7,680 nucleotides of DNA from a virus. Taxonomy: Duplodnaviria > Heunggongvirae > Uroviricota > Caudoviricetes. The DNA lies in the IMG/VR virus record IMGVR_UViG_2671180366_000007, positions 1-7,680 of that record. One strand, given 5' to 3'. Position numbers: made by a program. How positions within the stretch are numbered: the first letter of the stretch is position 1; each line of letters begins with the position of its first letter. Below are positions 1 to 3,000 of the stretch, piece after piece.

Positions 1-3000
1 ACCGGAAGCGGTATTACGTCGTTCGCTGGGGTTGCGTGCGGAAAAAATCCGCTCAATGTACCGTGAAAGCGACATCGTACCGGGAGAGCAGACCGCCACC
101 AGCATACTGAAGCAGCGCACAAAAAATCTTGCGCCGCTGCCTCACGCCCACCAGCAAAACCCGCCACAGGAAGAGACGGTGGTCAGCATTGCCGTTGATC
201 CTGAGTCTCCGGAATCTTTCATGAAACGACCTAAACGTCGCCGCTGGGTTAACGAGAAATACACACGCTGGGTGAAGACACAGCCGTGTGCGTGTTGTGG
301 TAAGCCAGCCGACGATCCCCATCACCTGATTGGTCATGGTCAGGGCGGAATGGGGACAAAATCTCACGATATTTTCACGCTACCGCTGTGTCGGGAGCAT
401 CACAACGAGCTTCATGCGGATCCTCTGGCGTTCGAAGAAAAGCATGGTTCTCAGGTTGATTTAATTTTTCGTTTTCTTGATCACGCCTTTGCAACTGGCG
501 TGCTTGGGTAAAAGAGGTGACTGATGCTCATAGATTTGGTTTTACCTTACCCGCCGACGGTGAACACTTACTGGCGACGCCGTGGCAGCACATATTTTGT
601 ATCAAAAGCCGGGGAGCGTTATCGCCGGGCAGTGGCGCTTATTGTTCGCCAGCAGCGGCTGAAATTAAGCCTGTCCGGAAGGCTGGCGATAAAGGTGATT
701 GCAGAGCCACCGGATAAGCGTCGTCGCGACCTGGACAATATCCTGAAAGCACCGCTGGATGCGCTGACGCATGCGGGAGTGTTAATGGACGATGAGCAGT
801 TTGATGAAATCAATATCGTTCGTGGTCAGCCAGTATCTGGAGGACCTCTGGGGGTGAAGATTTACCCCATAATGCATGAAGAGCAGGTCAAAAAATGAAA
901 CTGGAAGATTTACCGAAATACTACTCCCCAAAATCCCCTTGCCTGACCGATGCATCGGCCTCAACGTCAAAAGATGCGCTGAGTATCACTGATGTGATGG
1001 CCGCGCAGGGCATGACACAGAATCGGGCTGAGATGGGGTTTTCTGCGTTCCTGGGGAAAATGGGCATCAGTATGAATGACAGGGCGCGGGCAACAGAATT
1101 ACTGGCAGATTATGCACTCAGTCGGTGCGATCGTGTGGCGGCGTTGAGAAAACTTCCGGCAGAAATAAAACCGGTAGTGATGCGCATTATGGCTACGTAT
1201 GCGTTTGAAGATTATGCCCGCAGTGCAGCGAGTAAAAAGCAGTGTCCTTGTTGCCGTGGGGAAAAATTTATTGAAAGCATAGTTTTTACAAACAAGGTCC
1301 AGTATCCGGATGGTAAGCCGCCGGTATGGGCAAAGTGTACGAAAGGTGTGTATCCGTCTTACTGGGAAGAATGGAAAAAAGTCAGGGAGGTGGTAAAAGT
1401 TGCCTGTCCGGAGTGTGGCGGAAAGGGTGAGGTTTCCACCGCCTGTAAGGATTGCCGTGGGCGTGGTGTCGCCATTCATCGTGAAGAGTCGGTAAAACGT
1501 GGTATGCCTGTTATCAGAGACTGCCAGCGTTGTGATGGTCGTGGCTGTGAAAGACTACCATCAACGGAGGCATTTAATGCCATACGCAAAGTGACGAGTG
1601 CTATCACGCTTGATACGTGGAAAAAATCAGTGAAACGCTTTTACGATACGTTGGTGGTTCGGTTTGACATTGAAGAGGCATGGGCGGAGCGGCAGTTAAA
1701 GAGGGTAACGCGATAGTGTTGTTGATTTTTCCCGAATCTGTGGTAAATTTGCTCTAACGATGGGCGTTTTATGCCTGACGTTAGAAGATTTTTTACACCC
1801 CGCCGCCTGGCGGGTTTTTTATGACTGAAATCGCGTCAGTACAGTAAACGCGCTGGTGGCGGTGAATACCTGTCTTTCAGCTTGCTGGCTTTTTCGACAA
1901 GAGTTATTGGTGTGTCACGTTAACCGGAAAAGGAAAAGACATGCTAAAACAGCAGGATATGACAGAAACCGCCAGAGTGGTGTTTAATGAATTAAGCGTT
2001 ACCGACCCGGCGACAGTCGGGGAGATAGCGCAGAATACTTACCTTTCACGCGAACGCTGCCAGTTAATACTGACTCAGCTGGTTATGGCGGGTCTGGCAG
2101 ACTATCAGTTCGGTTGTTACAGACGCCTTCCGCAGTGAAGGCTTTTTTATTTGTGGTAAATGGGCGGCTGGTGGGTGTTAGGGGCACCCACCAGCCATCT
2201 GCTCATGCGTCCGGATCACAAGCAAACCTCAGGCCCACTGCTTTGCGCAAAAGCAGAATGAGCCTATCAGAGACAGGCTTAATGATCCATGCTTAATACT
2301 GTAAAAATATCCAGTTGTGAGTTAATCAACGCCGACTGCCTGGAATTTATCCGGTCGTTACCCGAAAATTCTGTTGACCTGATAGTCACGGACCCGCCGT
2401 ACTTTAAAGTGAAGCCTGAGGGCTGGGATAACCAGTGGAAGGGCGACGATGATTACCTGAAGTGGCTGGACCAGTGTCTGGCGCAGTTCTGGCGGGTGCT
2501 GAAACCTGCCGGAAGTCTTTACCTGTTCTGTGGTCATCGCCTGGCATCTGATATCGAAATCATGATGCGTGAACGCTTCAGTGTGCTGAACCATATTATC
2601 TGGGCGAAGCCGTCCGGACGCTGGAACGGATGCAACAAGGAAAGCCTGCGGGCGTATTTCCCCGCCACAGAGCGCATTCTGTTCGCGGAACATTATCAGG
2701 GGCCGTATCGTCCGAAAGATGCCGGGTATGCGGCGAAGGGCAGTGCACTGAAACAGCATGTGATGGCCCCGCTGATTTCTTACTTTCGTGATGCGCGCGC
2801 GGCCCTGGGGATAACGGCAAAACAGATTGCAGATGCCACAGGAAAGAAAAACATGGTGTCGCACTGGTTCAGTGCCAGTCAGTGGCAGCTACCGAATGAA
2901 AGCGATTATCTGAAATTACAGGCGCTGTTTGCCCGGGTGGCAGAAGAGAAGCATCGGCGTGGTGAACTGGAAAAGCTCCACCACCAGCTGGTGGATACGT

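Follow-up and report, generated by a model that had tools for sequence, protein, structure and literature searches.

The late-regulatory region of a lambdoid prophage contains, directly in front of a DNA methyltransferase gene, a perfect palindrome that carries a Chi octamer on each strand, and the question raised by this locus is whether the arrangement serves the DNA, as a recombination signal, or something else. The sequence analysed here, called the window in the following, is a stretch of 7,680 nucleotides (nt) covering positions 1 to 7,680 of the IMG/VR virus record IMGVR_UViG_2671180366_000007. The elements that the original prediction had described at this site are all present. The 12-bp inverted repeat is built from GGCTGGTGGGTG at 2166-2177 and CACCCACCAGCC at 2185-2196, which are 100% complementary and separated by 7 nt, the Chi octamer GCTGGTGG is found at 2167-2174 on the + strand and at 2188-2195 on the - strand, and the hairpin is located between the terminator-like hairpin of an open reading frame (ORF) of 65 amino acids (aa) and the methylase ATG at 2289. 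A chance origin of the hairpin can be excluded because there are two perfect 12-nt inverted repeats in the entire window, of which this is one, because the window contains nine Chi octamers while 0.35 are expected from dinucleotide-preserving shuffles, and because exact copies of the 54-nt segment around it occur in 818 complete E. coli genome records, and 1457 of 5426 complete E. coli genomes have a copy with an identity of 95% or more. The explanation that we consider fairly probable is that the 31-nt palindrome is a stem, P2, of a cis-acting structured RNA of about 135 nt, which forms the 5' leader of a methyltransferase gene of the M.EcoGI/GII family. This estimate covers the explanation as a whole, that is the leader RNA, the proposed repression of translation, and the role assigned to the Chi octamers. 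The original prediction had mentioned in passing that the hairpin may double as an RNA structure, and it is this aside that leads furthest, because the hairpin is a covarying stem of a larger RNA on the sense strand.

The hairpin as a probable stem of a leader RNA

The predicted leader folds into two domains, whose coordinates are given in Table 1. Domain D1 consists of helix P1, a 4-nt internal loop, and P2, which could be extended by two U.G pairs (2178-2179/2183-2184) leaving the loop AGG. Domain D2 is built from P3, P4, P5, and P6, and its closing helix P3 (GGAUCA/UGAUCC) stops one base short of the methylase AUG. The minimum-free-energy fold of the leader has -65.3 kcal/mol (z = -5.8 against shuffles), and the single-sequence fold and RNAalifold on 75 sequences concur on the two domains. 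In the alignment of these 75 sequences 85.6% of the cells are paired compared to about 38% with slid partners, and 13 pairs show two-sided changes. P1 is paired in 99.8% of the cells of alignment A2, and the pairing is retained in distant clades, in which its 3' strand becomes (A/G)CCCGU or GCCCAU. The strand predicted to be structured is the sense (+) strand, which is favoured by the wobble pairs. The D1 fold has on average -26.5 kcal/mol over 36 variants on the sense strand versus -20.3 kcal/mol on the reverse complement. The segment 2166-2196 does not have the features of an intrinsic terminator, as no U-run follows the hairpin and AUCUGCUCAU comes next.

The closest relatives already show how differently the two arms of the stem are treated. 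In an alignment of ten phages, which are 70-95% identical overall, the intergenic region is more conserved than the flanking genes, and within it the left arm together with the 5' flank, AATGGGCGGCTGGTGGGTGTT, is invariant while the right arm is variable. The 85 close loci with a detectable hairpin mostly contain one of three right-arm sequences, namely CACCCACCAGCC (49 loci), CACTCACCAGCC (22 loci), or CACCTGCCAGCC (11 loci). Read on the + strand, every right-arm substitution in the close loci exchanges a Watson-Crick pair for a wobble pair (G-C for G.U or U-A for U.G), and CACCUGCCAGCC is a natural G.U variant of the right arm of P2.

More distant sequences were obtained in two ways. A genome scan with one genome per species, for which an anchor without the hairpin was used (TCACAAGCNAACC..GGCCCA), identified the element in many Enterobacterales genera with 43 true matches, the other matches being chance matches in unrelated phyla. 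Neither arm of the hairpin carries a Chi octamer in Lonsdalea, Symbiopectobacterium, Serratia, and Rosenbergiella. The Chi-less hairpins keep the stem by compensatory changes (GAUCGG../..CCGAUC, GACCGGG../..CCCGGUC, and GCGGUG../..CACCGC), and GACUGUAAAAGUG/CACCUUUACAGUC is an example of a natural P2 stem without Chi. In addition, a covariance model, R1, was built from 61 sequences (137 positions, 41 pairs) and applied to homologous loci that had been collected independently of the RNA, on the basis of protein similarity with distant methylases. R1 matches the + strand directly 5' of the methylase gene in 63 of the 80 loci of the first set and in 72 of the 80 loci of the second set. The window itself is matched with 146 bits (E 5e-31) as sole strong match, which is given by construction because the window is part of the seed. 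The first distant set has two-sided changes in 33 of the 41 pairs, and 84.1% of its cells are paired compared to 65% in shuffled and about 35% in slid controls. P2 covaries at all of its 12 pairs with up to four pair types (e.g. UA12/CG9/AU7/GC5 at one pair), so that the P2 stems of the distant leaders, for example GCUGCAGCAUG, GGCGGAGAGGGUG, and GACUGUGAAGUG, are unrelated in sequence although the stem is retained throughout. In the second distant set two-sided changes were found in 22 of the 41 pairs. The predicted leader structure is thus conserved by compensatory changes across the phages of Enterobacterales.

The putative leader is also tightly linked to the methylase gene. All true matches of the anchor, which is independent of any protein, precede a start that resembles the methylase N-terminus, and one divergent locus (Rosenbergiella), which was translated in full, encodes the same methylase family. 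The phages LLS, Flotzy, and Eeyore are homologous to the window from about 2158, the first base of the leader, onwards. The upstream gene was examined in LLS and is a different one there. A homologue of the 65-aa ORF was found upstream by tblastn in 78 of 78 close loci, in 20 of 27 genome loci, and in none of 37 distant loci. Based on these counts the 65-aa ORF is a frequent neighbour and not a component of the system. The leader nearly always starts about 8-12 nt after an intrinsic terminator (about 10 nt in the window), and a terminator or T-run is present just 5' of the leader in 27 of 39 distinct distant upstream regions. In many of the distant phages the upstream terminator resembles tR' itself and is preceded by a promoter-like AT-rich stretch. 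One distant clade has a zinc-ribbon ORF of 41 aa (MTKLIELRCPKCGAKLCEF...CKRCK) between leader and methylase. It was verified in locus L215 (L215:1040-1165), while in L224, L218, L232, L236, L238, L213, L217, L202, and L211 its presence is deduced from the position of the leader match. The ORF matches PHROG 6417, annotated as 'translational regulator', with E 2e-5, and Pfam Com with E 0.0065, which is below threshold.

The methylase start region and a possible alternative fold

The methylase encoded in the window shares 98% identity with its syntenic counterpart in a prophage of E. coli O104:H4 C227-11. This strain is the source of M.EcoGI and M.EcoGII, which comprise 349 aa each (PMC5778455). 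M.EcoGII is a non-specific adenine methylase that also methylates RNA, whose constitutive expression is toxic or deleterious, and which is silent in the lysogen (PMC5778455).

The pentamer UGAUC at positions -6 to -2 of the AUG is invariant in the main group, and the region 2283-2288 has a mean predicted probability of being unpaired of 0.01. There is no canonical Shine-Dalgarno sequence close enough to the AUG, and the purine run nearest to it, AGG, is located 11 nt upstream. UGAUC is the complement of GAUCA, which is located beside the anti-Shine-Dalgarno sequence at the 3' end of the 16S rRNA of E. coli, and we infer that it is the only plausible ribosome-binding element with a workable spacing to the AUG. 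In the E. coli clade its pairing partner GGAUCA copies the GGAUCA sequence of the 16S rRNA 3' end. Helix P3 abuts the AUG and is retained in relatives, and the start region is therefore predicted to be sequestered. Because UGAUC would be buried in P3, the default fold should repress translation of the methylase. Such a repression would suit an enzyme that is kept silent in the lysogen despite leaky read-through from pR'. The invariant UGAUC (2283-2287) also contains a Dam site (GATC), and a second one is present within the GGAUCA partner (2214-2217) in the E. coli clade.

The leader could possibly be a two-state switch. In the alternative fold modelled here P1 would be replaced by P1', in which UGGGC (2161-2165) pairs with the invariant GCCCA (2233-2237), and the 3' strand of P1 would pair with the 5' strand of P4 in a candidate helix, Palt. 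The formation of P1' and Palt would free the UGAUC-AUG region. The two bases of the pair 2200/2224 are both unpaired in the main fold and still covary (CG24, UA23, AU8, UG4, with a single exception), and in other clades the strands of Palt differ but are complementary (CCGU/ACGG, UUCGCC/GGCGAA, and UUUGCCUGU/GCAGGCAAA). The alternative fold is the predicted minimum-free-energy fold in 7 of the 61 sequences, including SfV and the Hafnia phage yong2. Altogether, the alternative fold is moderately supported. The helices of the OFF state are well supported by covariation. For Palt, the main group shows one covarying pair. One could go further and regard the leader as a new class of two-state RNA switch, which licenses translation of a promiscuous DNA/RNA adenine methyltransferase in lytic growth only, but we consider this rather improbable. 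In such a switch P1 together with P3/P4 would be the OFF state with the ribosome-binding site sequestered, P1' together with Palt would be the ON state with the site free, and the Chi octamer would be written as a second, DNA-level message into a stem whose sequence is free. Candidates for the trigger would be S-adenosylmethionine (SAM) or S-adenosylhomocysteine, a phage late protein comparable to Com in Mu, altered elongation kinetics of the Q-modified RNA polymerase just after tR', or a feedback by the methylase through N6-methyladenosine on invariant unpaired adenines of its own leader.

A control of this kind can be compared with the com-mom translational control of phage Mu, in which a translation-inhibition stem in the mRNA is opened by the small protein Com. 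Both systems concern a late, toxic enzyme that modifies adenines in DNA and whose start region is located in an mRNA stem (predicted in our case). They also share an adjacent conserved upstream hairpin and a small ORF immediately upstream, and the distant clade with the Com-like ORF between leader and methylase adds to the resemblance. However, the window does not contain a Com homologue, the upstream ORF is winged-helix-like and not obligatory, the enzyme is a beta-class SAM methyltransferase and not Mom, and the leader, with two domains and 41 pairs, is far larger than the Mu leader and has no sequence similarity to it. With leaders that sequester the ribosome-binding site, such as riboswitch platforms, RNA thermometers, and attenuator-like leaders, the element shares a helix that pairs the ribosome-binding region, most conserved segments (UGGGC and GCCCA) with two possible partners, and covariation for a candidate mutually exclusive helix. 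It differs from these in that none of the 4227 Rfam models matches and that in the window the alternative state is the energetically less favourable one. A description of the leader was found neither in Rfam nor in the searchable literature, RefSeq does not annotate anything at this position, and a literature search with literal sequence strings of the leader retrieved unrelated primers and aptamers only. The leader thus appears to be a candidate for a new RNA family, although a cis-regulatory structured leader is familiar as a kind.

Chi octamers and competing explanations

Lambdoid phages in which a Rec module is absent rely on RecBCD and accumulate Chi sites near their right end (Zheng et al. 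2025, PMC12315714). In lambdoid DNA RecBCD enters from the right (cos) end, and Chi is active on the top strand alone (PMC12315714). The order of Q, methylase, holin, and lysozyme on the + strand of the window sets cos to the right as in LLS, so that the + copy of the hairpin Chi is in the active orientation. All five + strand Chi octamers of the window, including that at 2167, share this orientation. The numbers of top- and bottom-strand Chi octamers are 17/5 in SfV, 12/5 in phiP27, 20/3 in LLS, and 16/4 in mEp460, and the flanks of the 43 genome loci contain, per kb, 0.62 octamers on the top and 0.18 on the bottom strand. For comparison, E. coli has about 0.11 per strand per kb, computed from 1008 sites in the 4.6-Mb K-12 genome (PMC12315714). 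Because of this Chi richness and top-strand bias the phages with the leader are assigned to the Rec-less, Chi-rich class. In LLS the leader Chi, at 39318, is one of the 20 top-strand octamers that we counted, and 20 is also the number of Chi sites reported to be active (PMC12315714). In addition, the left arm with its Chi is fixed while the opposite arm has acquired wobbles, bulges, and internal loops, and stems without Chi covary cleanly. The fixed Chi-bearing arm favours a functional forward Chi, which is probably one of many right-end Chi sites of these phages. The forward Chi is dispensable for the RNA. The loci with Chi-less hairpins keep the stem, and the 10 of 43 genome loci without a hairpin Chi stay Chi-rich in their flanks (0.475 per kb). 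The sequence of P2 being free to vary, a Chi octamer could be carried at no structural cost. The published analysis of the Chi-rich right arms concerns the same class and region of phages, including LLS, which carries leader and methylase, and the top-strand excess near the cos-proximal end is common to both studies. It treats Chi as scattered octamers, and a search of its text found palindrome, hairpin, and intergenic unmentioned (PMC12315714), while in the present locus the octamer is part of a structurally constrained RNA stem, with an incidental mirror copy.

The original prediction had proposed that the palindrome is kept as a bidirectional Chi hotspot, at which RecBCD arriving from either side would meet an active Chi and thereby protect or recombine the DNA of phage or prophage. 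Both octamers are present, window and relatives are strongly enriched in Chi, many E. coli carry the perfect palindrome (the 818 records that are identical over 54 nt), and the stronger conservation of the left arm suggests selection on the top-strand octamer. The prediction is not supported for the reverse copy when the exact palindrome is followed through the relatives. While the forward Chi is found in 26 of 36 distinct D1 variants of the main group, in 13 of 27 distinct Morganella-like D1 variants, and in one of 41 distinct distant leaders of the first protein-derived set, the reverse Chi is found in 6, 3, and 0 of them, and is thus missing in 30, 24, and 41 sequences, respectively. Among the 85 close relatives it is lost in 36, both CACTCACCAGCC and CACCTGCCAGCC destroying it. 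Moreover, the bottom-strand copy is oriented such that RecBCD coming in at cos would find it inactive (PMC12315714), bottom-strand octamers are the rare ones in the flanks, and neither the loci without a hairpin Chi in otherwise Chi-rich surroundings nor the distant clades, which keep the stem with an unrelated sequence, fit to a selected double Chi. A bidirectional hotspot is therefore very unlikely, and the reverse Chi is most simply explained as a by-product of base pairing that appears only where the right arm perfectly complements the octamer. The second back-to-back Chi palindrome reported for the window, CCACCAGCTGGTGG at 2981-2994 with Chi at 2981 (-) and 2987 (+), is indeed present within the methylase ORF. 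Both Chi are found in SfV and mEp460, only the top one in LLS, and only the bottom one in phiP27, so that in these relatives the methylase-internal palindrome behaves much like that of the leader. The palindrome might also be read as a DNA operator that binds a dimeric protein, for instance the product of the upstream winged-helix-like 65-aa ORF, which would act as a controller-like protein for the methylase. This idea draws on the location of a perfect palindrome between a small, weakly TrmB-like ORF and the methylase gene, and on the linkage of this ORF in all 78 close loci. However, the half-sites are not conserved symmetrically, the left arm being fixed and the right arm having transitions that are wobble-compatible on one strand only. 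The repeat is nested in a larger covarying RNA structure, and in LLS as well as in the 37 of 37 distant loci that retain the hairpin the small ORF has been replaced or escapes detection. The suggestion of an operator, which was also part of the original prediction, thus has hardly any probability left.

Two further explanations accept an RNA but assign it another task. It is hard to imagine that the element is an independent small RNA (sRNA) or trans-acting riboregulator with its own promoter just past the terminator, although late regions of prophages are rich in sRNAs, STnc100 being an example in the window itself, and although a TGTG(A)AAAT motif is found 5' of the element in the main group. 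This upstream TGTG..AAAT motif is not conserved in distant clades, a scan of 1600-3500 did not find a promoter at the leader, and there is no terminator at the 3' end, the structure running into the start codon instead. The element does not match AgvB, AsxR, Esr41, STnc100, or any other of the 4227 Rfam models, which were searched at gathering and permissive thresholds with the whole window and with 2100-2320. The best match over the element is P26 on the minus strand with 21.4 bits (gathering threshold 36), all + strand matches have at most 15.4 bits, and the other permissive matches are chance matches, such as miRNA hairpins. Pas, AgvB, and AsxR have been described in published work on prophage sRNAs. 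The Pas sRNAs were considered and rejected because their described synteny puts them elsewhere in the prophage, and neither a methylase nor an antiterminator is mentioned in the supplements of Tree et al. 2014. Two coding alternatives were discarded as well. A leader peptide starting at the invariant AUG at 2161 would have 33 codons in the window but stops after 7 in the common GUUGUAG variants, and an ORF at 2114-2296 has no Pfam match and is broken in frame by one-base indels in relatives. More weight has the possibility that D1 is an RNase III-type cleavage site or a protective hairpin, which separates the methylase message from the upstream transcript, in place of or in addition to a sequestration of the ribosome-binding site. 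The D1 geometry of 6 + 14 bp with a 4-nt internal loop on the 3' side is conserved in all clades and resembles that of phage RNase III sites, and the leader closely follows a terminator. With phage RNase III sites such as those of the T7 early and late regions and of the lambda N leader, the element would share about two helical turns, an asymmetric internal loop, and a location in a polycistronic phage transcript, the geometry being predicted in our case. It differs from them in that the leader extends well past the hairpin and ends at the start codon. RNA processing would leave unexplained the conservation and covariation of D2, the invariant UGAUC beside the AUG, and the covariation of Palt. 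We therefore regard this explanation as unlikely.

Several points weigh against the preferred reading of a leader RNA that represses translation and carries a functional forward Chi. Because the anchor by which the main-group loci were identified lies within the element, the conservation of TCACAAGC.AACC..GGCCCA in these loci is partly given by construction. The alignments A4 and A5 were fitted to the structure of the model, which biases their pair counts towards the model. Nevertheless, both the slide controls and the many different pair types speak for a real covariation signal. The Chi-bearing left arm is near-invariant in Enterobacteriaceae and in part of the Morganella-like set, and this near-invariance is left unexplained by RNA structure alone. 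The proposed ribosome-binding role of UGAUC builds on its complementarity to 16S rRNA, and transcription through the leader is deduced from its position in the late operon. Concerning the alternative fold, P1' is paired in 99.7% of the cells but its strands are invariant and its covariation thus uninformative. Cognate Palt duplexes have on average -5.5 kcal/mol versus -4.4 kcal/mol for non-cognate ones and are weakly supported in some clades. For the window itself, the energy of the alternative fold is about 10 kcal/mol higher than that of the minimum-free-energy fold.

Genomic context and significance

The window represents the late-regulatory and lysis region of a lambdoid prophage. It matches lambdoid phages, those of the Stx type among them, and shares 97.4% identity with a prophage of E. 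coli O104:H4 C227-11. The features on the + strand are, in this order, DUF968, RusA, the Q antiterminator, the tR'-like terminator, the 65-aa ORF, the PF01555 methyltransferase, tRNA-Met(CAT), tRNA-Arg(TCT), the STnc100 sRNA, a P21-type holin, DUF1327, and lysozyme. The TrmB-like match of the 65-aa ORF (E 0.004) is under the Pfam cut-off, and the terminator-like hairpin at 2125-2142 overlaps the stop codon of this ORF. The Q antiterminator is long with 273 aa and contains two PF03589 stretches and a sub-threshold match to a DnaJ-type CXXCXGXG zinc finger. A 2026 preprint links STnc100 to the prophage sRNA PasD. The second perfect 12-nt inverted repeat of the window (TCCTTATGGACT at 4549-4560 and AGTCCATAAGGA at 4571-4582, 10 nt apart) is located just 3' of the STnc100 match at the end of a minus-strand ORF (4552-4887). 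A pair of tRNAs also follows the methylase in Stx phages, where the first is annotated as ileZ/tRNA-Ile. Because the tRNAs are not followed by stx genes here, the window can be regarded as an stx-less relative of the late region of Stx phages.

Table 1. Positions of the leader elements, Chi octamers, and neighbouring genes in the window
Feature	Position	Strand	Basis or remark
Whole structured leader RNA, two domains, ends with the methylase start codon (ATG 2289-2291)	2158-2294	+	covariance model R1 and fold
P1 5' strand AUGGGC, near-invariant across the family	2160-2165	+	pairs with GCUCAU 2201-2206
P2, the reported hairpin, 12 Watson-Crick pairs 2166-2177/2185-2196	2166-2196	+	fold and covariation
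3'-side internal loop AUCU 2197-2200 and P1 3' strand GCUCAU 2201-2206	2197-2206	+	fold
Palt (candidate alternative helix) 5' strand	2198-2203	+	covariation at pair 2200/2224
P3 5' strand GGAUCA 2213-2218 and P4 5' strand AAGC 2220-2223	2213-2226	+	fold
Palt (candidate) 3' strand AGCAAA	2221-2226	+	alternative pairing
P5 AGGC/GCCU	2231-2234/2262-2265	+	fold, domain 2
CA/UG pairs	2236-2237/2259-2260	+	fold, domain 2
Hairpin P6 CUGCUUU/AAAGCAG	2238-2244/2250-2256	+	fold, domain 2
P4 3' strand GCUU 2277-2280, P3 3' strand UGAUCC 2283-2288, and AUG 2289-2291	2277-2291	+	fold, predicted sequestered initiation region
Chi octamers	1852, 2167, 2987, 4208, 6678	+	exact octamer search
Chi octamers	96, 148, 2188, 2981	-	exact octamer search
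Palindrome CCACCAGCTGGTGG	2981-2994	both	methylase codons H-H-Q-L-V-D
Q antiterminator	895-1716	+	gene annotation of the window
tR'-like terminator	1799-1814	+	between Q and the 65-aa ORF
65-aa ORF, PHROG 331 (function unknown)	1941-2138	+	weak TrmB-like winged-helix match
Intrinsic-terminator-like hairpin (2125-2142) and T-run TTTTTT	2125-2148	+	terminator scan and sequence
Beta-class N6/N4 DNA methyltransferase gene, M.EcoGI/M.EcoGII family, 349 aa	2289-3338	+	Pfam PF01555, E 6e-43
tRNA-Met(CAT)	3388-3463	+	3' of methylase
tRNA-Arg(TCT)	3564-3638	+	3' of methylase
STnc100 sRNA (RF02076)	4337-4526	+	Rfam match, 132 bits, E 8e-30

For motif scans the locus is a caution, as the double-Chi palindrome would here be the shadow of an RNA stem, and it may serve as an example of a phage under Chi selection that places the octamer in a stem that is otherwise free to vary. 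Non-specific adenine methylases of the M.EcoGII type are widely used as reagents and are silent in the prophages of many E. coli. With its first domain present at 95% identity or more in over a quarter of the complete E. coli genomes (the 1457 of 5426 given above), and with the leader being distributed across the phages of Enterobacterales, the putative leader RNA would offer a concrete handle on how expression of the methylase is held off and then released.

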